A DNA stretch of 57,867 nt, from contig QZIP01000038.1 in the NCBI GenBank assembly GCA_003599595.1, forward strand, positions 1-57,867. The letters run 5' to 3'. Made by a program: the position numbers and the translations under genes. The DNA comes from Candidatus Parcubacteria bacterium. Lineage in GTDB: Bacteria; Patescibacteriota; Microgenomatia; Levybacterales; GWA1-39-11. Below the pieces are notes generated by a model. That model was not told the origin of the DNA. It ran no database searches and saw only the letters and a program-made list of their open reading frames with translations. Of the stretch, positions 305 through 23,074 are shown one piece after another; position 1 is the first letter of the stretch, and each line of letters opens with the position of its first letter.

Positions 305-2707
305 ATGAATTCAGCTGTTGATAAGCCTCAAGATAAATTAATTCCTATAATTCCAATTAGAGACGGAATCGTCTTTCCTCATACGGAATCAATTCTAACA
401 TTTGGAAGGCCCAAAAGCCTTGCTGCACTTGAGTCTGCTTTTGCAGGAGAAAGAGTGGTATGTTTTGTACTTCAAAAAAACCCCAAGCAAAATGACCCGG
501 AATCCCAGGATCTATATGGAATGGGCACAGTTTCTCACATTGAGAGAATGATCAGAACTGACGGAGAAGTTAATGCTTTGGTTAAAGGTTTGGCTAGAGC
601 AAAAATCCTTGGATATGAAGAAAGAGATGGATATCTTATGGCACGGGTTGAAGAAATTGATGAAAATTTGGCAGGCAATCCTGACATAAAAGCTCTTTCA
701 AATCATTTAGTAGCAGAATTTAAAAAAGCACTTAGTCTTGGAAAACAGGCAGACTTTTTGGTTTATATGAATATATTGTCTGAAATAACCGCCGGAGAAC
801 TGGCAGATCAAATTGCCTCAACTCTTGATATCAAAGGTTCTGAGAGACAAGAAATTCTTGAAACAATAGACATAAGACAAAGGCTTGAGAAAGTTACTGA
901 ATTTTTGTCCCGTGAGGTTAAAGTTCTAGAATTAGAAAGAAAAATAGCAGCAAAAACTCAAGAACAATTTGAGAAAAGCGCAAAAGAAGCGATACTGCGC
1001 GAAAGACTAAAAACTATTGAAAAAGAGCTTGGGGAAAGTGATGAAGGCAGTGAGATAAAAGAATTGGCATTGAAAATCAAAAAGGCAGGAATGCCAAAAG
1101 ATGTTGAAGAAAAGGCACACAAGGAACTTAAAAAACTTCAGCAGATCACACCTTACAATCCAGAAGCTGGCTGGATTAGAAATTATCTTGACTGGTTAAT
1201 AGCTCTTCCATGGAGTAAGACAAGCAAAAATAATATTGACATAAAAGAAGCAGAAAAGATCTTAAATGAAGATCATTTTGGTCTTAATAAAGCCAAAGAA
1301 AGGATTATCGAATATTTGGCAGTTCATAAGCTTGCAGGCAAAATGAAAGGTCCTATTCTTTGTTTTGTAGGACCACCAGGGGTTGGTAAAACATCCATTG
1401 GTAAATCCATTGCAAGAGCATTGGGAAGAAAATTTGTTAAGGTTTCACTTGGTGGAATTAGAGATGAAGCAGAAGTAAGAGGTCACAGAAGAACTTATGT
1501 TGGTGCGCTTCCAGGAAGAATTATTCAGGGGATAAAAGACGCCGGAACAGTAAATCCTGTCTTTATGTTGGATGAAATAGATAAAGTTGGTGCTGACTTC
1601 AGAGGAGATCCATCATCTGCACTTCTTGAAGCACTAGATCCTGAACAGAACCACGCATTTTCAGATCATTATTTAGACGTTCCATTTGATCTTTCAGATG
1701 TGATGTTTATTACTACAGCGAATATGTTGGACACTATTCCTCCCGCTTTAAGAGATAGACTTGAGATCATTCATTTTGCAGGCTACACAGAAGATGAAAA
1801 ATTCCACATTATTAAAGATTTCTTAATAAAAAAACAATATAAAGCCCACGGATTAAAATATGAAGATGCTCAGATTTTAGATGAGGCTTTGCATTATGTT
1901 ATTCAAAGATACACAAAGGAGGCAGGAGTTAGAAATTTAGAAAGGGAACTTGCAACAGTTCTTAGGAAAATTGCCAAAACAAAAGCAGAAGGCAAAAATA
2001 AAAAGGTTATTGTTACGCCTAAAAATGTTTCAAAATTCCTTGGGGCAGAAAAGTTTAGTCAGTCCCTTGCGGAGAAAAAAGATGAGGCGGGTATGGCAAC
2101 AGGACTTGCCTGGACACAAGCAGGTGGGGAGATACTTTTTATAGAAGTTGCTCTTATGCCAGGCCGCGGCCGGCTAACCTTGACAGGTCAATTAGGAGAA
2201 GTAATGAAAGAAAGCTGCCAGGCGGCTCTATCATATATTAGGGCAAGAGCCAAAAAGTTTGGCGTAAAGGATAATTTTTATCAGAAAACTGATATTCATG
2301 TCCATGTTCCTGAAGGTGCGGTTCCAAAAGACGGTCCATCAGCAGGAACCGCAATAACAACAGCTCTTGTTTCTGCCTTGGCAAAAAATCCCGTTAATCA
2401 TCTAGTGGGTATGACAGGGGAAGTGACGCTTAGAGGTAGGGTGCTTGAGATAGGCGGAGTAAAAGAAAAAGTAATTGCCGCTCACCGTGCAGGACTTAAA
2501 ATTATTATTATGTCCAAAGAAAACAGAAAAGATTTAGAGGATATTCCCAAAGAAGTATTAAAAGATCTTAGATTTGTCTTTGTGTCTCATATGGATGAAA
2601 TTCTTAAAGTTGCGCTTACCAAGCCTCTACCAGGATTTAAAGAAATCAAAGGAGAAAAAGAAATAAGAGAAAATCTTATCTCTCTCCAGCCCACCCCTGC
2701 AGAATAA
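305..2707 (+). CDS. lon: ATP-dependent Lon protease (LonA type)
   Basis: 800 aa. N-terminal LON domain (IPIIPIRDGIVFP), Walker A GPPGVGKTS, Walker B FMLDEIDK, protease serine motif KDGPSAGTA. Confidence 0.97.
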   Translation: MNSAVDKPQDKLIPIIPIRDGIVFPHTESILTFGRPKSLAALESAFAGERVVCFVLQKNPKQNDPESQDLYGMGTVSHIERMIRTDGEVNALVKGLARAKILGYEERDGYLMARVEEIDENLAGNPDIKALSNHLVAEFKKALSLGKQADFLVYMNILSEITAGELADQIASTLDIKGSERQEILETIDIRQRLEKVTEFLSREVKVLELERKIAAKTQEQFEKSAKEAILRERLKTIEKELGESDEGSEIKELALKIKKAGMPKDVEEKAHKELKKLQQITPYNPEAGWIRNYLDWLIALPWSKTSKNNIDIKEAEKILNEDHFGLNKAKERIIEYLAVHKLAGKMKGPILCFVGPPGVGKTSIGKSIARALGRKFVKVSLGGIRDEAEVRGHRRTYVGALPGRIIQGIKDAGTVNPVFMLDEIDKVGADFRGDPSSALLEALDPEQNHAFSDHYLDVPFDLSDVMFITTANMLDTIPPALRDRLEIIHFAGYTEDEKFHIIKDFLIKKQYKAHGLKYEDAQILDEALHYVIQRYTKEAGVRNLERELATVLRKIAKTKAEGKNKKVIVTPKNVSKFLGAEKFSQSLAEKKDEAGMATGLAWTQAGGEILFIEVALMPGRGRLTLTGQLGEVMKESCQAALSYIRARAKKFGVKDNFYQKTDIHVHVPEGAVPKDGPSAGTAITTALVSALAKNPVNHLVGMTGEVTLRGRVLEIGGVKEKVIAAHRAGLKIIIMSKENRKDLEDIPKEVLKDLRFVFVSHMDEILKVALTKPLPGFKEIKGEKEIRENLISLQPTPAE

Positions 2708-2828: not shown

Positions 2829-3791
2829 ATGAATAATTTTTGGATAAAGTTACCTATTCCTTTTACTGTTCTTGCTCCAATGGATGGAGTGACAGACATA
2901 GTTTTCCGTAGTGTTATAAAAAGTATTGCAAGACCAGACGTCTTTTTTACAGAATTCACAAGCTGTGACGGAATAATCTCTGCTGGGAAAAATATTTCAA
3001 TGCAAAAATTAAATTTTGATCCAAATGAAAAACCAATTGTGGCGCAAGTTTGGGGATCAAATCCTTCAAATTTTTATCAAACTGCAAAATATGTTAAAAA
3101 GTTTGGCTTTTCAGGTATTGACATAAATATAGGTTGCCCCGACAAAACAGTTGTAAAAAGTGGAGCAGGGGCAGCGTTAATTAATAATCCTTCTCTTACA
3201 AGAGAGATTATTAAAGCAGTAAAGGAGGGGGCAAATGGTCTCCCTGTTAGTGTGAAAACAAGAATAGGTTTTCAAAAAGAGCAAGTTGAGGAATGGATAG
3301 GGTTTTTATTGGAACAGGATCTAGAGGCAATAAGTATTCATTTGAGAACTGTAAAAGAACTTTCAAAAGTGCCTGCCCATTGGGAATTAATGCCAAAAAT
3401 CATTGATTTAAGAAATAAAATTAATCCAAAAACTTTAATTATTGGAAATGGTGATGTTAATTCTTTATCTGAAGTAGATGAAAAACATAAATTATATGGT
3501 TGTGAGGGTGTAATGATTGGAACAGGTGTCTTTTCAAACCCCTGGTTGTTTAATAAGACAATTAAAATGGAAGATATTTCAACTCTAGAGAGACTAGATT
3601 TATATTTGAAACACATAAGATTGTTTAATAAAATTTGGGGTGAAGAAAAAAAACCAGTAACCTTGAGAAAGTTCTGCAAAACATATGTAAATAATTTTTC
3701 CGGAGCAAGTGCTTTAAGGGAAAAAATGATGCAAACAGAAACAATAGAAGACTTGGTCAGCCTAATAAACAACTACAAACAAAACCTATAA
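2829..3791 (+). CDS. dus: tRNA-dihydrouridine synthase (Dus family)
   Basis: 320 aa. LAPMDGVTDIVFR N-terminus, IDINIGCP motif, TIM-barrel flavoenzyme pattern typical of Dus. Confidence 0.88.
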   Translation: MNNFWIKLPIPFTVLAPMDGVTDIVFRSVIKSIARPDVFFTEFTSCDGIISAGKNISMQKLNFDPNEKPIVAQVWGSNPSNFYQTAKYVKKFGFSGIDINIGCPDKTVVKSGAGAALINNPSLTREIIKAVKEGANGLPVSVKTRIGFQKEQVEEWIGFLLEQDLEAISIHLRTVKELSKVPAHWELMPKIIDLRNKINPKTLIIGNGDVNSLSEVDEKHKLYGCEGVMIGTGVFSNPWLFNKTIKMEDISTLERLDLYLKHIRLFNKIWGEEKKPVTLRKFCKTYVNNFSGASALREKMMQTETIEDLVSLINNYKQNL

Positions 3792-3834
3792 ATTATTTTC
3801 TTTATTAGAAACTAAAATAGCTTGTAAAATCTTA

Positions 3835-4356
3835 AGAAAAATATGGCGTCCTGATCCCAAAAATAAATCATTAATTCAGCTCCCAACCTGGCTTAATGGT
3901 TTTAAAAAACATAGGGAAAAGTTCCAGGGGTCTGGTCCATTTCCAGAAGCATTATTCTTAAGAACAGAAGATTTTTTCAAGGAGAATTATTTAAAACAAA
4001 CAAAAAGTCAGATGCTGCTTCACGGAGATTTTCATCACACTCATATCCTTTCCTCAAAAAGAGATGAATGGCTTGCAATTGATCCAAGGGGAATTACCGG
4101 TTGTCCTGTTTACGACGTTGCAACATTTCTAAATAATCCTAGACCAAGCTTATTAAAAAAACCAAATATAAAACAAATAATCAAAAAAAGAATCGAGATA
4201 TTCTCTAAAGAGTTTGATATGGATAAAAAAGAAATTATAGAGTGGGGAATTACTCAGTCAATGCTTTCTGCAATTTGGAGCCTGGAAGATCATGGAAGAG
4301 GTTGGGAATATGGAATAAATTTTGCAGAACTACTTTTTGAGATAGAGCTAGAATAA
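3835..4356 (+). pseudogene. 5'-truncated aminoglycoside 6-phosphotransferase (APH(6)/StrB-like) remnant
   Basis: The frame is open from 3835 but the first ATG is at 4012. LLHGDFHHTHIL...WLAIDPRG...YDVA parallels the LHGDLHHENI...LVIDPVG catalytic region of APH(6). About 100 N-terminal residues have no counterpart, and dus ends at 3791. Confidence 0.7.
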
Positions 4357-4365
4357 ATACCGACA

Positions 4366-4396
4366 AAGGTTACACCTTGACAAAAGGTGTAACCTT
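4366..4396. repeat. GGTTACACC-family perfect hairpin between convergent genes (possible bidirectional terminator)
   Basis: AAGGTTACACCTT (4366-4378), loop GACAA, AAGGTGTAACCTT (4384-4396). 13-bp perfect stem. Confidence 0.6.
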
Positions 4397-4455
4397 AATC
4401 CTTAAAACTGTTAAAGCTATTTCAGTCCCATGACTGTGTTCAGCAAAAATCAAGC

Positions 4456-5307
4456 TTAAACGTATCTTCTTGCTATTTCTCTGCAAAGGGTGTCAAGCTC
4501 TCTTCTTGATCTTAAGAATGCACTTGTTTTTCTAAAAGGAAAAACCTTGTCCCATAAACTTCTTTTAATTCCTGCCTTTTCATATTGACTAGTTTTAATA
4601 GTATGTGTCCCTCTTTTAGTATGAGGAATTGTTCCTTCTAACTCGCCATATATTCTTTTAAGCCGTTTTGGCACCCGTTGTCCCCTTGGATATTGATCTA
4701 ATTTTCTATTTGTGCCCTCATTGTATCTTTTAAGAGCAAGCGCTTTATAGTCATCCACTTCATATTCATCAACTCCTTTAAAATAATCATTCCAATACCA
4801 CACGGGAATCTTGGTATAGGCTATTTGCGTTTCTACTATTGCTTCAGGAAATGCCTCGGTGAATAAATCATTTGCCCGCTGGATGCTTTCTCCTTTATCT
4901 TTATAGTCATCAACTATTAGTATTCTTCCTTTTGTGTCAATACTCTTTCCATAAGTTTGTTCAACAATTAAAGGTGGTCCTTTAAAACTTCTTTCTAGGG
5001 ATGCATCAGAGAGTGGGCTGATATTTATAAATCTTATAGCAGGTAAAGTAGCGCCGGGAAAATAAACAGGAAATAGTTTTTTAAAGATATAAGCAAGAGG
5101 TCTAGCGCTTTTATCAAGAAAAAAAATACTATTAGGCATTTTTTGGTCCCTTACACGATCGGAGAAGCTGCACATAAATTTATGGGTTTCATCAATTAAT
5201 TCTGACAAGGAAAGCCTTTCTGGCATCTCTGATGTGTAAGCCTTCTCTGTTTGCTCGTATGTTGCTTCATACATTGGAAAAATTATGGAACATTCGCAAC
5301 TTCTCAT
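4456..5307 (-). CDS. Hypothetical protein with a phosphoribosyltransferase-like motif
   Basis: 283 aa. RILIVDDYKDKGESI resembles the PRPP-binding loop of type I PRTases. The start is ambiguous (alternative Met at MYEATYE). No SD. Confidence 0.45.
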   Translation of the reverse strand: MRSCECSIIFPMYEATYEQTEKAYTSEMPERLSLSELIDETHKFMCSFSDRVRDQKMPNSIFFLDKSARPLAYIFKKLFPVYFPGATLPAIRFINISPLSDASLERSFKGPPLIVEQTYGKSIDTKGRILIVDDYKDKGESIQRANDLFTEAFPEAIVETQIAYTKIPVWYWNDYFKGVDEYEVDDYKALALKRYNEGTNRKLDQYPRGQRVPKRLKRIYGELEGTIPHTKRGTHTIKTSQYEKAGIKRSLWDKVFPFRKTSAFLRSRRELDTLCREIARRYV

Positions 5308-5391
5308 AGATCAACTTATAGTAGAAAATTATAGCAGAAAAAGAAAGAAAATTAAATCTTATAAGATTGATTCACTTAAAAAGTGTTATTA

Positions 5392-6477
5392 GCTGAATTC
5401 GCAGTGGAAGTGCACCAGTTGTTAGGTGCGGGGATTCGCAAGTATTCTCTCAAGCATTTCATTTGGTGTCAAGTACCCCAGACATTTTCTCGGCGTGTTA
5501 TTCATGATATTCTCAATCCGGGTTAAATCTTTTTGGGTTAAATTGTCGACACTTTGTTTCTTGGGAACAAATTTTTTTAATCTACCAATGCCATTTTCAA
5601 TTGATCCTTTCTCCCAGGAGTGATATGAATTACAAGCATAGACTGGCATCATTGTTTGTTTGGTAAACTTCTCGTGTTGACTGTTCTCAGATCCTCGATC
5701 TATTGTCATGGTCTTTCGTAGTGTTTGATTCTCATGCTTCAATTGTATAACCAATGCTTTCCGTTTGGTTTGTGACTTTTGATCTTTGAGTTTTCTGATT
5801 CTCATTACCCGTGATTTTCTCTCAACTGTTGCTGATATTCCTGTTTTGTCTGTTGTAACAGTTCCCACATTATCTGTTTCCCAATGTCCTGCCTCACACC
5901 GTGTATTTGCCGCTTCTGGCCTCATTTCTATTGGTAAGGCTGTGGGTAACCTCACAGCCTTTACCTTTCTTCCATGCTTTTTCATCCGTCGTTTCCGGTG
6001 AAATGTTAAATGCTGCCACAGTTTCATTCCCCGTGTCTTTGACCGTTGTGAATAAATATACCGATAAATCGTTTCATCATTAAATGAATACTCAGGATAG
6101 TCAATTGAAAGTCTTGCTGCAATTTGTTCAGGACTCCAATAATATGGTTTTCTTAAATGCTTCCTTAGATACAAAAATACCAAAGGACATTTAAGTGGTG
6201 CTCTATATCGTTGTCTGTCTGCCCAAATCGTTGATCTTCTATCAGCAATGCACGGAAGATAGTTTTTTCCATATTTTGTATGTCGTTTGAGTTCACGAGA
6301 CAAACTTGAATGGGACCGTCCTAACCGGCGCGCTATTTCCCGTAATGATTCTCTTGACTCCTTCCGGGCAAACAGCTTTTCCCGTTCCTCAAGCGATAAA
6401 TGATGATATGTCCGCATTGATTTTACACCTCCTCCCGAATCCTATATTATACCTGAGTGGTGCACTTCGTTTGCGAA
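5392..6477 (-). mobile_element. IS30-family insertion sequence, apparently intact
   Basis: Imperfect terminal inverted repeats TTCGCAGTGGAAGTGCACCA (5398-5417) and TGGTGCACTTCGTTTGCGAA (6458-6477), 17 of 20 complementary. Single transposase ORF. About 1.08 kb. No clear target-site duplication. Confidence 0.8.
5422..6417 (-). CDS. IS30-family DDE transposase
   Basis: 331 aa. N-terminal HTH (SLREIARRLGRSHSSLSRELKR), HWETD, TIDRGSE and HSWEKGSIEN match the IS30 DDE pattern. Strong SD GGAGGAGGTG 8 nt upstream of the ATG. Confidence 0.9.
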   Translation of the reverse strand: MRTYHHLSLEEREKLFARKESRESLREIARRLGRSHSSLSRELKRHTKYGKNYLPCIADRRSTIWADRQRYRAPLKCPLVFLYLRKHLRKPYYWSPEQIAARLSIDYPEYSFNDETIYRYIYSQRSKTRGMKLWQHLTFHRKRRMKKHGRKVKAVRLPTALPIEMRPEAANTRCEAGHWETDNVGTVTTDKTGISATVERKSRVMRIRKLKDQKSQTKRKALVIQLKHENQTLRKTMTIDRGSENSQHEKFTKQTMMPVYACNSYHSWEKGSIENGIGRLKKFVPKKQSVDNLTQKDLTRIENIMNNTPRKCLGYLTPNEMLERILANPRT

Positions 6478-6537
6478 CCTAAAAACGTGCGGGTTTTTAT
6501 TTAAGCTTTGTATGTTGCAAATACCTTTCTAAACAGC

Positions 6538-6606
6538 AAAAACACCCTTGATCTTATTCAGAATCCCGACTTTGTCGGAATGATCCCTTTCGGGACCTCA
6601 AGGGTG
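6538..6606 (-). terminator. Complex stem-loop plus T5 run downstream of the 131-aa membrane-protein gene
   Basis: CACCCTTGA (6543-6551) pairs with TCAAGGGTG (6598-6606) around inner CCCGAC/GTCGG hairpins. It is followed on the minus strand by TTTTT (6538-6542). Confidence 0.5.
6563..6581. repeat. Degenerate CCCGAT-family palindrome copy
   Basis: ATCCCGACTTTGTCGGAAT. 7 of 9 arm positions pair. Confidence 0.4.
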
Positions 6607-6660
6607 CTCCTGCACTTTTATTCAGTTGTTGTGGAAAATGTTAGGTTACTGGCTCAAGAC

Positions 6661-7056
6661 CTACATGAACAGGTGGAAGATCCAGCCGATCACAAGTATT
6701 ACCATTGGGAAGAAGATCGCCTGGAGTGCGCTCTGTATGAAGTCCTTCTGTTTGCGCTCTATCACGGCCTTGATCGACCTGCCTGTTACAGGATCTGTGA
6801 GTGTCATCTCCTGGTTAGATCTCTCATTAGTACCGAAACCGGTCACGACCAATCTCCCAATAAGGAACAATCCCAAGGCTTGGGGGATGGTTAGACTAGG
6901 GAGGTCATTGAATGTGCTGACTGCGAACCACTGCCAGAAGATAGTGAGAACGTACCCTCCAAGAACGAGCGAGATCAGGAATAGAATTATGTTGCTGACG
7001 AATTTCGCTACACGGTTTTCCATGTTCTCGCTTACCTCAGATGTTTTGGTAGTCAT
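6661..7056 (-). CDS. Small integral membrane protein, unknown function (GC-richer block)
   Basis: 131 aa with hydrophobic helices. SD-like AAAGGA 7 nt upstream of the ATG. Terminator downstream. Overlapping plus-strand ORFs look like antisense shadows. Confidence 0.6.
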   Translation of the reverse strand: MTTKTSEVSENMENRVAKFVSNIILFLISLVLGGYVLTIFWQWFAVSTFNDLPSLTIPQALGLFLIGRLVVTGFGTNERSNQEMTLTDPVTGRSIKAVIERKQKDFIQSALQAIFFPMVILVIGWIFHLFM

Positions 7057-7175
7057 TAGATTGTCCTTTCTGTCCTTGCCAAGTTTGATTAGATGATATT
7101 AGCAAGAAGTAGGTGCGTGGTTAACACCGTCCCCACCAAAGGTGAGCTTGCCACCGCTTTTTTGAGATCGAGAAG

Positions 7176-7463
7176 TTAGTCCTTGATGACAAACCCGATG
7201 ACACAGATGATAAGTAGCGTAGCTGCCCAGATTGCACCCCATACTACATTCGCAGCAATGAGGCCGAAAAACGTTACACTAATTTCGACGATGAGTCTCG
7301 GCCACACCATGAGGGAGTTCATGTTGATAGATCCCCACTCATATTTGGGTATTCCGATGAATACTAGGGAAAGCAGTGCAACTATTGCTATCCACCACCC
7401 CCATGCCATTCCTATAGCAACCAGACACGCGATTCGGATACTAAGAAGGATTAGAAAACTCAT
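7176..7463 (-). CDS. Small integral membrane protein, unknown function (GC-richer block)
   Basis: Start chosen at the Met of MSFLILLSI because AAGGGAG lies 7 nt upstream. About 95 aa, three hydrophobic segments. Confidence 0.55.
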   Translation of the reverse strand: MSFLILLSIRIACLVAIGMAWGWWIAIVALLSLVFIGIPKYEWGSINMNSLMVWPRLIVEISVTFFGLIAANVVWGAIWAATLLIICVIGFVIKD

Positions 7464-7650
7464 GTCCAAGCTCCCTTCTGAACCAATACACATGTGAATT
7501 CCGCAACTCTCAATAGGCGGCACACCAGATACCTAATTTAATATTTCACCATAGGGATGACAGATATCCAGAGAACCACCTACTGAGTAGATTAGCTTTC
7601 CTCCAATCTTAGTTCGGTCTACCTAAGTCAAACACGATTTTTCACAACTA

Positions 7651-7669
7651 ATCCCGATTAAATCGGGAT
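7651..7669. repeat. CCCGAT-family 19-nt perfect palindrome
   Basis: ATCCCGATTAAATCGGGAT. Confidence 0.7.
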
Positions 7670-7866
7670 AATCTGTCAAAGTGCAAAAAATCCTTCTACG
7701 CATAAAGCTTTGAAGGACAAGAAATAAACAAAAGAAACAAAAAAACAGGCAGCAAAAAAATGCCTAGATTTATTTCTTTTGTGGAGTTGATTATATCTTA
7801 AAGAGGAAGAAAAGTCAATTACTATGAGATTTATCAGCAAAGCTAGGTTCCGCGTGGCACCTTAAT

Positions 7867-7901
7867 ATAAGATTACACCTTGTAACAAGGTGTAATCTTA
7901 T
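7867..7901. repeat. GATTACACC-family perfect hairpin downstream of the erm-like gene
   Basis: ATAAGATTACACCTT, loop GTAAC, AAGGTGTAATCTTAT. 15-bp stem. Confidence 0.6.
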
Positions 7902-7941
7902 ACACCATAATACTTATTATACTTTTACCTATAATGAAAGA

Positions 7942-8703
7942 CTAACATAACTCACTATAAAGCTTGATCCACTGACTCAAAGACAAATAACTTGGCTTTA
8001 TATCTTTTCTAATACCAATCTTATTAAAAGCACTAGATGTCTTTTTAAGGCCAAACTTATTTTTCAAATTTTTCATCAGTGGTAGTCCCTGGTTAAACCC
8101 AAGCCGGACAAGATCTTGATAATCTTTTCTTTCTTTCCGGGAAATCAAGGGATTATCCTGTTTTTTAAACCTTAGTATTACCACATCAACACTTGGCACT
8201 GGAACAAAATCAGTCCGTTCGAAATGATGGTAAATAGAAAAATCAAACCAGGGTTTATGCATGACTGAAAACATATTTTCCTTGTATGGAGCACAAAGAC
8301 GGTAAGCAAGCTCTTTCATCATCACCAAATAGCAATCTTCTGGCGGATTGTAAGACCCTATAAGTTTTCTAATGATTTTTCCTTCAATTGAAAAGGGAAT
8401 ATTTGCAAAAACCTTATAAGGTGAGGACGGAAGCTGAAAATCCAATATATCCGCCTTGTACAAGTTTATATTTTTAACATTAATAAACTTATTTTGTAAA
8501 TATTTATACCAATAGCCATCAATTTCAACAGCAATTACCTGCTTTGCTTGATTGATAAGTTTTTGGGTAATAATTCCTTTCCCGGGACCAATTTCTAAAA
8601 CAAGATCATTTTTACCAATAGAAGATTTTAGGACTAGCTTTTTAACAAGCTTCCTTTTATAAAGAAAGTTTTGTGAGAAGAGCTTCCGCCGTAAACTGTA
8701 CAT
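7942..8703 (-). CDS. erm: Erm-like 23S rRNA (adenine-N6)-methyltransferase (Erm/KsgA superfamily)
   Basis: 253 aa. FSQNFL, EIGPGKGIIT SAM motif, YKVFANIPFSI catalytic NIPY-like motif, C-terminal LSLSQWIKLYSEL. Length and C-terminal domain resemble ErmC/ErmB more than KsgA. Canonical SD AAGGAGG 7 nt upstream of the ATG. Confidence 0.65.
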   Translation of the reverse strand: MYSLRRKLFSQNFLYKRKLVKKLVLKSSIGKNDLVLEIGPGKGIITQKLINQAKQVIAVEIDGYWYKYLQNKFINVKNINLYKADILDFQLPSSPYKVFANIPFSIEGKIIRKLIGSYNPPEDCYLVMMKELAYRLCAPYKENMFSVMHKPWFDFSIYHHFERTDFVPVPSVDVVILRFKKQDNPLISRKERKDYQDLVRLGFNQGLPLMKNLKNKFGLKKTSSAFNKIGIRKDIKPSYLSLSQWIKLYSELC

Positions 8704-8849
8704 AGCGAAACCTCCTTATGAAAAACATCATAATATTAATATTCCTTAACTAACTTTTATATTATTGCTTATTGTATTATATCATTCTTAATTCAAAAAT
8801 AAAAAGCAACCCTAAATAATTTTGTTAAAAATTATTATTTTAGATAAAC

Positions 8850-10127
8850 TTAGTTTAATAACACTAAAATCTCATCTTTAATAGCCAGTTGAATATCACT
8901 TGGTAATAATTCACGCTCCTGAAGTTCAACCACTTTATCGCTATCTCTTCCTCCCAAAATGACAAAGCCAGATTCTGTTGCGACCTCTTTTAAAGTTTCT
9001 CTAATACCTTGTATAAATAATATAATTTCTGCTTTTTCTGTATTGCCCATATTTTCTGGAAATGGAATATGGTGGGTTTTGCTGGTTGTGTCTATGAAGA
9101 TTACACTTTGGCAAAACTGATAGAGACCCTCAACTTTTTGTAAATTTTTATGCAGAGGAAATCTTTCAGGAAAAGTATGGCTGGAAATGCCAATTTTTAT
9201 GCCTGCCCTATGAAGTTGTCTTGCAAGTGAAAGAACACAACCATACGCTTCAGCTGTACCAGAATCACCATGATAAAAATAGGACCTGATTTTTACTTCA
9301 TGTTCTGAAAAAGTTTCTCTGATTTGCCATTCTATTTTTTCATCACTTTCAAATGCTCCGTCTCTTAAAAACCCTCCAACATATGAACCTGTAGTTATCA
9401 TTTTTTTAACACCAATTATGCTTGCCAAATATTTAGAAAATGAAATTAAAGGTAACTGGGAGTATTCAATGGGGTCATCAAAAATTCCAGCAGGTCTTTT
9501 GTAATCAACTCCCTTTGTGGCTACGTGTTCAATTCCAGCTTCTCTGATAAAAGATTCAGGATTTTCAGCCATTTTAATATAGTCTTGAGTGGAAACAAGT
9601 GGGGCAGGGGAGTCCTGACGGGTAAAAACAACAAAAGCCGATTCTGGAGATAAGACAATATTATGTTTTTGCAACTCTTTTTTTAGTGCAATTTCTGCTT
9701 CGTAAATATTTTGTGGTTTTGTTAAAGAATAACCAGCAGGTTGAAAGAATATAATTGGGAGTCCCATTTCATTAGCTCTCTGAATGAGCTTGCATAGTTC
9801 CTGACTATAAATTTCAAATCTTCTTTGATAGGGCCAATCACTTACTGTCTCTGGGTAATCTTCATACATAAAAGGGTGAACTACTGCAAGACCAGCACCT
9901 TTTTCTTTAAAAGCAGCCTTTAATTTTTCTTCTTGATCTGCCGGGAGGCTAATTCCATCAAAATCCAAATGTTGTAAAAAAATATTTTTCGTTTCAGCTT
10001 CTGTAGGATGTAAGCACAAAACGTCAGAATTAGATTGATAAGGGCTTCCCTCTTTTAACATATTGTTTAAAATGTTGTTTAAGATATATGAGGAAAGAAT
10101 TATAACAAAGGAGTAGACCAAAAACAA
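8850..10127 (-). CDS. Hypothetical protein
   Basis: 425-aa ORF from a TTG start. The first ATG is at 10061 (MLKEGSPYQ). No motif recognised. Confidence 0.55.
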   Translation of the reverse strand: MFLVYSFVIILSSYILNNILNNMLKEGSPYQSNSDVLCLHPTEAETKNIFLQHLDFDGISLPADQEEKLKAAFKEKGAGLAVVHPFMYEDYPETVSDWPYQRRFEIYSQELCKLIQRANEMGLPIIFFQPAGYSLTKPQNIYEAEIALKKELQKHNIVLSPESAFVVFTRQDSPAPLVSTQDYIKMAENPESFIREAGIEHVATKGVDYKRPAGIFDDPIEYSQLPLISFSKYLASIIGVKKMITTGSYVGGFLRDGAFESDEKIEWQIRETFSEHEVKIRSYFYHGDSGTAEAYGCVLSLARQLHRAGIKIGISSHTFPERFPLHKNLQKVEGLYQFCQSVIFIDTTSKTHHIPFPENMGNTEKAEIILFIQGIRETLKEVATESGFVILGGRDSDKVVELQERELLPSDIQLAIKDEILVLLN

Positions 10128-10162
10128 GTTACTATAGGGTTATAAACAGATTTTGAGTAAGA

Positions 10163-10186
10163 ATGCTGAATTCGCAGTGGAAGTGC
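10163..10186. mobile_element. Solo IS30 terminus remnant
   Basis: GCTGAATTCGCAGTGGAAGTGCAC is identical over 24 nt, in the same orientation, to the left terminus of the intact IS (5392-5415). The IS interior is replaced by the dus-tail copy. Confidence 0.75.
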
Positions 10187-10236
10187 ACTTGGTCAGCCTA
10201 ATAAACAATTACAAACAAAGTCTCTAAATTGTTTCC
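10187..10236 (+). repeat. Imperfect duplicate of the dus 3' end (partner at 3751-3800)
   Basis: ACTTGGTCAGCCTAATAAACAATTACAAACAAAGTCTCTAAATTGTTTCC versus 3751-3800 ACTTGGTCAGCCTAATAAACAACTACAAACAAAACCTATAAATTATTTTC. A handful of mismatches over 50 nt. Confidence 0.75.
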
Positions 10237-10262
10237 TGAAGTGAGCCTATTATACTTTATAG

Positions 10263-10336
10263 TACCGCCAGCGGGAGTCGAACCCGCGATCTTCACGTTG
10301 AGAACGTGACGTCCTAGGCCACTAGACGATGGCGGC
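10263..10336 (-). tRNA. tRNA-Glu (anticodon CUC)
   Basis: The reverse complement GCCGCCATCGTCTAGTGGCCTAGGACGTCACGTTCTCAACGTGAAGATCGCGGGTTCGACTCCCGCTGGCGGTA folds as a cloverleaf. Anticodon stem TCACG/CGTGA, loop TTCTCAA, T-loop TTCGACT. No encoded CCA. Confidence 0.9.
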
Positions 10337-10397
10337 TCTATTTACTATTTTTTCAATTGCAACCTTACTTTTTAGTATATATGTCGTAAACATTTTA

Positions 10398-10471
10398 GTC
10401 CTGGGCCACTAGCCCCGATGATCGTTGTCATCGGGATCCCGATGGAATCTACCATCGGGAACGATGAGGCC
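10398..10471 (-). pseudogene. tRNA-Glu 5'-half-like fragment interrupted by two tandem CCCGATG hairpins
   Basis: On the minus strand, GGCCTCATCGT, then a 48-nt insert, then CTAGTGGCCCAGGAC matches the acceptor-5' plus D-arm of the adjacent tRNA (about 22 of 26). The insert (10413-10460) is CCCGATGA..TCATCGGG plus CCCGATGG..CCATCGGG. There is no anticodon or T arm. Confidence 0.4.
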
Positions 10472-10559
10472 AACTGCTTACACTATTTTACCTTATCCAG
10501 CCACAAAACTCAACAAAAAATTACAAAACATCCAATTTTCAAAAACAGCGGAAGTTGTG

Positions 10560-22960: not shown

Positions 22961-23020
22961 TAACTGCTAGAAGGTTGTTAAATCTGCCTCGAAAATCAAA
23001 AGAATTAAACTTCTTTTACA

Positions 23021-23051
23021 AAGGTTACATCTTAAGAGAAGGTGTAGCCTT
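23021..23051. repeat. GGTTACACC-family hairpin, degenerate copy
   Basis: AAGGTTACATCTT, loop AAGAG, AAGGTGTAGCCTT. The two mismatches would be G-U pairs in RNA. Confidence 0.5.
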
Positions 23052-23074
23052 AACTGGAGAACTACATCGAGCAC

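Follow-up and report, generated by a model that had tools for sequence, protein, structure and literature searches.

The question raised by this locus is how the 3′ end of dus, the gene of a tRNA-dihydrouridine synthase, came to stand twice on one contig, once as the end of the intact gene and again beyond an islet of other genes, beside a tRNA-Glu(CTC) gene. The window, that is the whole stretch of DNA that was analysed (57,867 nt of QZIP01000038.1, hereafter contig C3), belongs to a 1.40-Mb metagenome-assembled genome (MAG; GCA_003599595.1) of 52 contigs with 35% GC, 85% completeness and 2.7% contamination. The genome is that of an uncultivated groundwater bacterium of the candidate phyla radiation (CPR), of Microgenomates type, and the sole species of its genus among the compared genomes; the nearest matches of its Dus protein carry the annotation Candidatus Levybacteria or Patescibacteria, with a best identity of 67%. 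With slightly better than even confidence, we read the stretch between dus and tRNA-Glu as a real, decayed mosaic accessory islet that arose by several recombination events, and as neither a working transposon nor a working integrative element.

The islet is bracketed by a 51-nt direct repeat (3751-3801 and 10187-10237) with 45 of 51 positions identical (88%), one nucleotide longer at the end of each copy than a first, sequence-only reading had described it (3751-3800 and 10187-10236). Compared with the whole 1.4-Mb MAG, it gave a blastn E-value of 1e-10 and no further match there. The six mismatches are at positions 23, 34, 35, 38, 45 and 49, leaving positions 1-22 identical, and the chance that the first 22 of 51 positions stay clean with six mismatches is C(29,6)/C(51,6) = 0.026. 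Both copies retain the reading frame and a TAA stop, the variant distal 3′ end of copy 2 reading ...CAATTACAAACAAAGTCTCTAAATTGTTTCCT. Four differences fall in the coding part, three of them at third codon positions; two are synonymous and one is an Asn to Ser codon change. Because the mismatches are clustered, the changes mostly in third positions, the frame and stop kept and the adjoining insertion sequence (IS) relic unchanged, we favour the view that the two copies represent two orthologous dus ends of related lineages rather than one decaying duplicate, each of these arguments being weak alone. The gene itself is single in the MAG, and its length and C-terminus agree with those of its homologues (317-329 amino acids). 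No other gene-end repeat pair of the dus type was found MAG-wide, and a recurrent gene-end duplication mechanism was rejected, the other short direct repeats being intergenic hairpin elements or paralogous genes. We also looked for a dus relic by the paralogous tRNA-Glu(TTC) gene on contig C10, where none is present.

The second copy of the repeat is joined to the outer end of an IS. The 24-nt terminus GCTGAATTCGCAGTGGAAGTGCAC occurs at 5392-5415, in an intact IS30-family element, and at 10165-10188, the two being 100% identical and in the same orientation (blastn E-value 4e-4 against the MAG, and nowhere else in it); 100 shuffles of the window gave no match to it, even allowing 3 mismatches. 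The outermost base of this solo terminus, 10165, lies towards orf425, and the sequence departs from the IS at nucleotide 25 into dus, the terminus and repeat copy 2 sharing 2 nt (AC, 10187-10188). The sequence-only reading was right about the identity, the orientation and the direct fusion to the dus end; its coordinates (10163-10186) are 2 nt too low. It likewise placed the tRNA-Glu gene correctly, with the 3′ end facing the islet, the distance from the repeat being 24 nt and not 27 bp. Since the break lies inside the IS, and transposase cuts at IS ends, the joint cannot come from transposition and is probably an illegitimate joint with 2-nt microhomology. A transposase-made junction (intramolecular transposition, IS dimers or an adjacent deletion) was rejected for the same position of the joint, 24 nt inside the IS, and one-ended mobilisation through a surrogate IS end past the GC-rich block was rejected after no sequence resembling the inverted repeat was found there with 4 or fewer mismatches out of 20. 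No copy of the terminus was found in viral contigs. Transposition also fails to explain the dus repeat: IS30-type target duplications measure 2-3 bp, so that a repeat of 51 nt at 88% identity cannot be one.

In the relatives, dus and tRNA-Glu are neighbours. On the Hainich groundwater contig with the closest Dus (L028, 67%), the dus stop abuts the 3′ end of a minus-strand tRNA-Glu gene, followed by a small open reading frame (ORF) and tRNA-Lys, and in G035 (L005) the genes are ordered likewise, with about 300 nt from dus to the tRNA-Glu downstream. At L065, L016, L017, L006 and L031 the tRNA-Glu/ORF/tRNA-Lys cassette is inverted and still lies beside dus. None of the islet genes was found near dus in 14 + 29 relative loci, which points to 3802-10188 being inserted material, and repeat copy 2 together with tRNA-Glu looks like the stranded ancestral junction, because dus adjoins tRNA-Glu in the relatives. 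The islet content is accessory, since orf425 has no homologue in 40 relatives (a word-based search was also empty), orf283 is found in 1 of 49 family genomes and the Erm type is above cut-off in 5 of 49. As an observation in its own right, the cassette beside dus in the relatives consists of tRNA-Glu(TTC), a small membrane ORF and tRNA-Lys(TTT) in both orientations, which suggests that inversion between the two tRNA genes may be recurrent.

The history that we favour would run as follows. The ancestral dus would have ended a few tens of nucleotides from the 3′ end of tRNA-Glu, the two genes being convergent neighbours. Into this site would have come DNA of a related lineage in which a dus 3′ end, diverged by about 12% from the resident one, had previously been fused to a truncated aph(6) gene. 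Recombination with the resident dus would have taken place within the 22 identical nucleotides or to their left, through a single crossover if the incoming molecule was circular, or else, after uptake of DNA, through one joint by homology and a second, illegitimate one. Thereafter dus would have been complete with the imported 3′ end (copy 1), and its former 3′ end (copy 2) would have been stranded beyond the insert. Two copies of the IS30-family element in direct orientation would once have flanked the GC-rich block, erm and orf425, and an illegitimate deletion or joint, via the AC microhomology with dus, would have left no more than the first 24 nt of the right-hand one. Among the cargo, orf283, orf425 and the erm-like gene are intact, and aph(6) is a dead gene; of the islet content, only the intact IS could still move today.

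It is possible, if rather doubtful, that the repeat and the 2-nt joint are the natural scar of DNA uptake followed by homology-anchored recombination between two CPR lineages. Homology-facilitated illegitimate recombination and Campbell-type single-crossover insertion of homeologous DNA are described for naturally transformable bacteria. The likeness to such events lies in one joint within 22 nt of identity, one joint at 2-nt microhomology and an insert that carries a diverged copy of the anchor; the difference is that our case is read from the scar in one MAG.

Several points weigh against the history that we favour. The statistics are weak, with a probability of about 0.03 for the clustering of the mismatches, and, given 6 changes in 51 nt, the unchanged 24-nt relic has a chance of about 0.06-0.24 under decay in situ. 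Which repeat copy is resident and which imported is decided by position only, and no mechanism accounts for the left joint, where truncated aph(6) follows 10 nt past dus. The dus-adjacent tRNA gene of the relatives is tRNA-Glu(TTC), not CTC. The comparison with related genomes for an empty site, which the sequence-only reading had proposed, did show dus and tRNA-Glu side by side in relatives, but the collections searched hold no genome with a Dus more than 67% identical, and neither a true empty site nor a donor was seen. Finally, the dus junction and the IS are absent from every indexed sequencing run, the contig structure being that of the assembly alone; groundwater metagenomes are the only indexed runs that share any words with the region, and in nine groundwater runs the match covers no more than the tRNA and some words from the module upstream of it. 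Exact-protein look-ups for Dus and the transposase gave zero matches.

Table 1. Coordinates of the islet and its flanks in the window.
Feature	Position	Strand	Remarks
lon	305-2707		left flank of the islet; contig starts at lon, flank only 3.8 kb
dus (tRNA-dihydrouridine synthase)	2829-3791	+	intact, 320 amino acids; Pfam Dus 5.2e-55
Direct repeat, copy 1	3751-3801	+	final 41 nt of dus and 10 nt downstream; stops exactly at the start of truncated aph(6)
aph(6)-type aminoglycoside phosphotransferase pseudogene	3802-4356	+	5′-truncated; PF04655 5.4e-25, NF012171
Hairpin	4366-4397	.	between the convergent aph(6) remnant and orf283
orf283	4456-5307	-	orphan, weakly phosphoribosyltransferase-like; ILIVDDYKDKG motif
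IS30-family insertion sequence	5392-6483	-	intact, 1,092 bp; terminal inverted repeats
IS transposase	5422-6417	-	single ORF, 331 amino acids; N-terminal HTH_38
GC-rich block	6484-7650	-	45-48% GC vs 35% in the genome; about 1.2 kb
orf131	6661-7056		small membrane-like ORF in the GC-rich block
orf115	7176-7523		small membrane-like ORF in the GC-rich block
Hairpin, perfect 18-bp stem	7866-7902	.	just downstream of erm; same family as 4366-4397
Erm-type 23S rRNA adenine methyltransferase gene	7942-8703	-	253 amino acids; strong Shine-Dalgarno sequence
orf425	8850-10127	-	orphan, 425 amino acids; N-terminal hydrophobic helix, alpha/beta pattern
Solo IS outer end (transposase-distal inverted repeat)	10165-10188	+	equals 5392-5415; directly oriented second copy, interior missing
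Direct repeat, copy 2	10187-10237	+	displaced dus 3′ end, still coding ...LVSLINNYKQSL*; adjoins tRNA-Glu
tRNA-Glu(CTC)	10262-10336	-	ARAGORN; Rfam tRNA 63.2 bits; 3′ end towards the islet

The sequence-only reading had proposed a composite transposon, in which two direct IS30-family copies around the GC-rich block, erm and orf425 were inserted as a unit and the right IS was later deleted to 24 nt. We consider this unlikely. Two IS outer ends in direct orientation around cargo are indeed present, and the IS and the GC-rich block are compositionally foreign; however, the erm gene is host-like in composition, unlike these two, and its homologues are found in varied contexts without the window IS. 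The 2-3-bp target duplications of such elements are far shorter than the 51 nt of a repeat with 88% identity, no such duplication flanks the intact IS, and a second dus copy to the right of the transposon would be required and is not accounted for. The proposal also leaves 3802-5391 unexplained, since aph(6) and orf283 stand outside the IS-bounded unit yet within the repeat, and where a compound transposon has two complete IS copies, the window has one full copy and a 24-nt end with neither transposase gene nor other end. There is a precedent for an IS30-family transposon that carries erm, namely Tn4351, with the structure IS4351-tetX-ermF-IS4351 (PMC12366310). The likeness to Tn4351/Tn4400-type elements of Bacteroides and relatives consists of direct IS30-family ends around cargo with an Erm-type gene; in the window, by contrast, the second IS is a 24-nt stump, the unit is immobile and shows no flanking target duplication, the right outer end at which one would be read being deleted, the IS is only distantly related and of a CPR lineage (highest nucleotide identities 81% and 72%, to copies in other MAGs), the erm gene is of a clade found across CPR and is not ermF, and the combination of IS and cargo was found nowhere else. 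Limited to 5392-10188, a Tn4351-like composite transposon is plausible.

The sequence-only reading named as an alternative that the repeat copies are attL and attR of an integrated element. In a fuller form, in which the element targeted the dus 3′ end with a replacement gene end and lost its integrase, for instance with the second IS, this is improbable to us. The layout is the classic one, with 22 identical nucleotides to the 5′ side, then a divergent replacement of the 3′ end by which the gene is restored, an abrupt loss of homology on the element side and a site beside a tRNA gene, so that the repeats and the restored gene expected of an integrative element are both there. The cognate recombinase is not: no tyrosine or serine recombinase or fragment (PF00589, PF00239) was found in C3:3802-10188, even at E<=1, the recombinases of the MAG being on contigs C20, C18 and C8. 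Moreover, both ends of the would-be element are broken genes (truncated aph(6), 24 nt of IS) instead of dedicated att arms, the MAG has no second pair of such repeats, and viral contigs hold no related element. In comparison with known genomic islands at gene 3′ ends, the islet shares the imperfect gene-end repeat around accessory DNA, the intact gene and the adjacent tRNA, and differs in having no integrase or remnant and in the broken genes at its element-side ends. Among the Proteobacteria, the known dus-targeting islands with a dusA-specific integrase use the 5′ end of dusA, whereas the present site is the 3′ end of a DusB-like CPR gene. We give as little credence to an assembly chimera, in which two strains or loci were joined via the IS or a collapsed repeat and dus and its 3′ relic never lay on one molecule. 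The fragmentation, completeness and contamination of the MAG, the short left flank and the 12% difference between the repeat copies, which would fit two strains, speak for it, as does the intact IS without a target duplication, as expected if its flanks came from different insertion sites. But the 2 nt shared at the joint between the 24 nt of IS and dus are too few for k-mer overlap to have created it; of the internal sequences, only the IS has the length to mislead an assembler, and it is single-copy in the assembly and on no contig end; no duplicate strain copies of lon, dus or the islet genes are present in the MAG; and a real junction of orf425, the 24 nt of IS, the dus 3′ end and tRNA would still need explaining.

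The IS is a new member of the IS30 family. Its transposase scores 189.5 bits against NF033563 (cut-off 80) over model positions 1-267 of 267, in agreement with the intact IS30-family element of the sequence-only reading. The inverted repeats are imperfect, about 27 bp long (5392-5418 and 6457-6483), with a 20-nt core that is 85% complementary. We set the boundaries by aligning L018 (81% nucleotide identity), L022 (72%; a copy in a Microgenomates MAG), G007 (a family member with its copy at a contig end) and a mini-IS on C10; the boundary falls at GCTG..., and 5392 is the outermost base of the transposase-distal inverted repeat, from which the element extends rightwards. The agreement with L018, L022 and G007 confirms that the 24-nt sequence is a genuine outer IS end, as first claimed, and the search of the MAG for other copies that had been proposed found the window IS to be the only full one. 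No target-site duplication flanks the intact IS (...tta on the left, aac... on the right), nor is there one at the related copy L022. Transposase score, length (family range about 1.0-1.25 kb), single ORF and inverted repeats (family range 20-30 bp) all assign the element to IS30, the 2-3-bp duplication alone being absent; this absence is compatible with later recombination at the IS, and the family membership stands.

Relatives and remnants of the IS occur elsewhere. The closest relative, L018 (DATDTA010000102.1; 81% at the nucleotide and 82% at the amino acid level), fills a 1,360-bp contig binned as Candidatus Nanoarchaeia archaeon, which reflects either a binning error or an IS lineage common to CPR bacteria and DPANN archaea. 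C10:30140-30318 is a 179-bp internally deleted derivative of the same IS lineage, resembling a miniature inverted-repeat transposable element, with both inverted repeats kept; over its first ~106 nt it matches the window IS at 83% identity. From the 3′ end of tRNA-Glu(TTC) it is 585 nt downstream, past a second GIY-YIG ORF, so that each of the two tRNA-Glu genes has a relic of the IS30 family to its 3′ side. Both the solo 24-nt terminus and this 179-bp element are typical IS decay products, the former being unusual only in that it is fused to the displaced end of a gene. At C33:3646-4710 there is another IS30-family transposase gene, which is unrelated (30% identical) and above the NF033563 cut-off, and C15:1949-2038 encodes a 30-residue transposase fragment. 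Two C-terminal transposase remnants of 46 and 20 residues, 76-95% identical, are on one 12-kb contig of Candidatus Daviesbacteria (MFCX01000001.1; L024, L027), which suggests that truncated relics of the window IS lineage are common in Microgenomates.

As regards the other islet genes, the aph(6) remnant begins where repeat copy 1 ends, ten nucleotides past the dus stop. It covers profile positions 95-251 of 252, with homology over 3811-4290 and about 94 N-terminal residues gone; lacking the full-length APH(6) kinase domain, it is a pseudogene. It is the only APH(6)-like sequence of the MAG, and no N-terminal part was found MAG-wide. The matches of orf283 are weak (PDB 4z1o, a purine phosphoribosyltransferase, E=0.01; Pfam Pribosyltran, E=0.14). 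For orf425, only 8 distant matches were obtained among 1.84 billion representative proteins (best 40% identity over 376 amino acids), Pfam, NCBIfam, PADLOC and PDB searches gave no match, and a single-sequence AlphaFold model with a predicted local distance difference test (pLDDT) score of 38 was unusable. Viral contigs hold no relative of orf425 or orf283. The GC-rich block, whose sole family match is a weak YccF-like one, is separated by an AT-rich spacer from the second of two hairpins. These belong to a family with a GATTACACC stem that stands at gene ends (4366-4397, 7866-7902 and 23018-23053 in the window; C9:35465-35497), and an Rfam search returned tRNA only and no other RNA family. 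When 4-mer composition was compared with the whole MAG, only 5401-7800 (the IS and the GC-rich block) was atypical, in the bottom 2-8% of windows, the GC-rich block being in the bottom 2-4%; aph(6), orf283, erm and orf425 are host-like. The cargo thus looks like material exchanged among related CPR bacteria, and the IS and GC-rich block look like arrivals from further away.

The erm product scores 230.3 bits against NF000499 (cut-off 212) and 157 bits with the ksgA model, under its 171-bit cut-off, and a separate KsgA-like gene on C43 is 26% identical to it, so that both the curated threshold and its distinctness from KsgA/RsmA place it in the Erm type. It has more than 1,000 homologues at 55-73% identity, the named ones being from CPR bacteria (Microgenomates group, Woese-, Pace- and Dojkabacteria), and the gene is apparently common yet patchy in CPR bacteria. 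The homologue loci examined (L058-L064) have varied neighbourhoods that share only erm, and the window IS is at none of them. On one CPR-like contig (L061 5896-7768 and L062 4186-6058), the erm homologue, 66% identical, is immediately preceded on its own strand by a gene for a 337-aa APH (PF01636), with a TraG/TrwB-like ATPase gene near the pair; a pairing of kinase and Erm may be recurrent in CPR-like genomes. Genes resembling erm are commonly counted as resistance genes in CPR (PMC8651080), while selected CPR methyltransferases, expressed in E. coli, reportedly gave no significant antimicrobial resistance phenotype (2026 preprint 10.64898/2026.07.13.738296). The window gene is intact and encodes a predicted methyltransferase that might confer macrolide-lincosamide-streptogramin B resistance.

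The far side of tRNA-Glu(CTC) has a history of its own. About 150 nt upstream of it (10337-10480, minus strand) are nearly identical to the sequence upstream of tRNA-Glu(TTC) on C10 (C10:29160-29560; L057:7160-7560), the tRNAs themselves being about 82% alike. The shared module begins within a tRNA-Glu pseudo 5′ half, itself split in two by a double hairpin of 48 nt. The C10 copy has an 84-aa GIY-YIG ORF (Pfam 1.7e-13) reading into the tRNA, of which an in-frame stretch of 196 nt between 9-nt repeats (TAAAAAGTRAG) is missing in the window copy. The module has the look of a GIY-YIG cassette, now in decay, that either spread from one tRNA-Glu locus to the other or was converted between them. Deletions bounded by microhomology recur in the MAG, in the 179-bp mini-IS on C10 and in the 196-nt GIY-YIG deletion beside the window tRNA.

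The islet is an ordinary decaying scar of past gene import and represents no new mechanism or class of element. It offers a small concrete case of accessory DNA being gained and later eroded in a reduced CPR genome (Levybacteria-like, 1.4 Mb): a single tRNA-adjacent hotspot combines an intact Erm-type gene with a dead aph(6), IS relics and an IS30-family element that looks active. It also cautions that direct repeats of gene ends are not always att sites or transposon footprints, and provides genomic context for reports that CPR bacteria are rich in resistance-like methyltransferases (PMC8651080; 10.64898/2026.07.13.738296). If the repeat and the 2-nt joint are truly a scar of DNA uptake, the locus would be sequence evidence that episymbiotic, uncultivated CPR bacteria gain accessory and resistance-like genes by transformation-type recombination from close relatives, and not through dedicated mobile elements.

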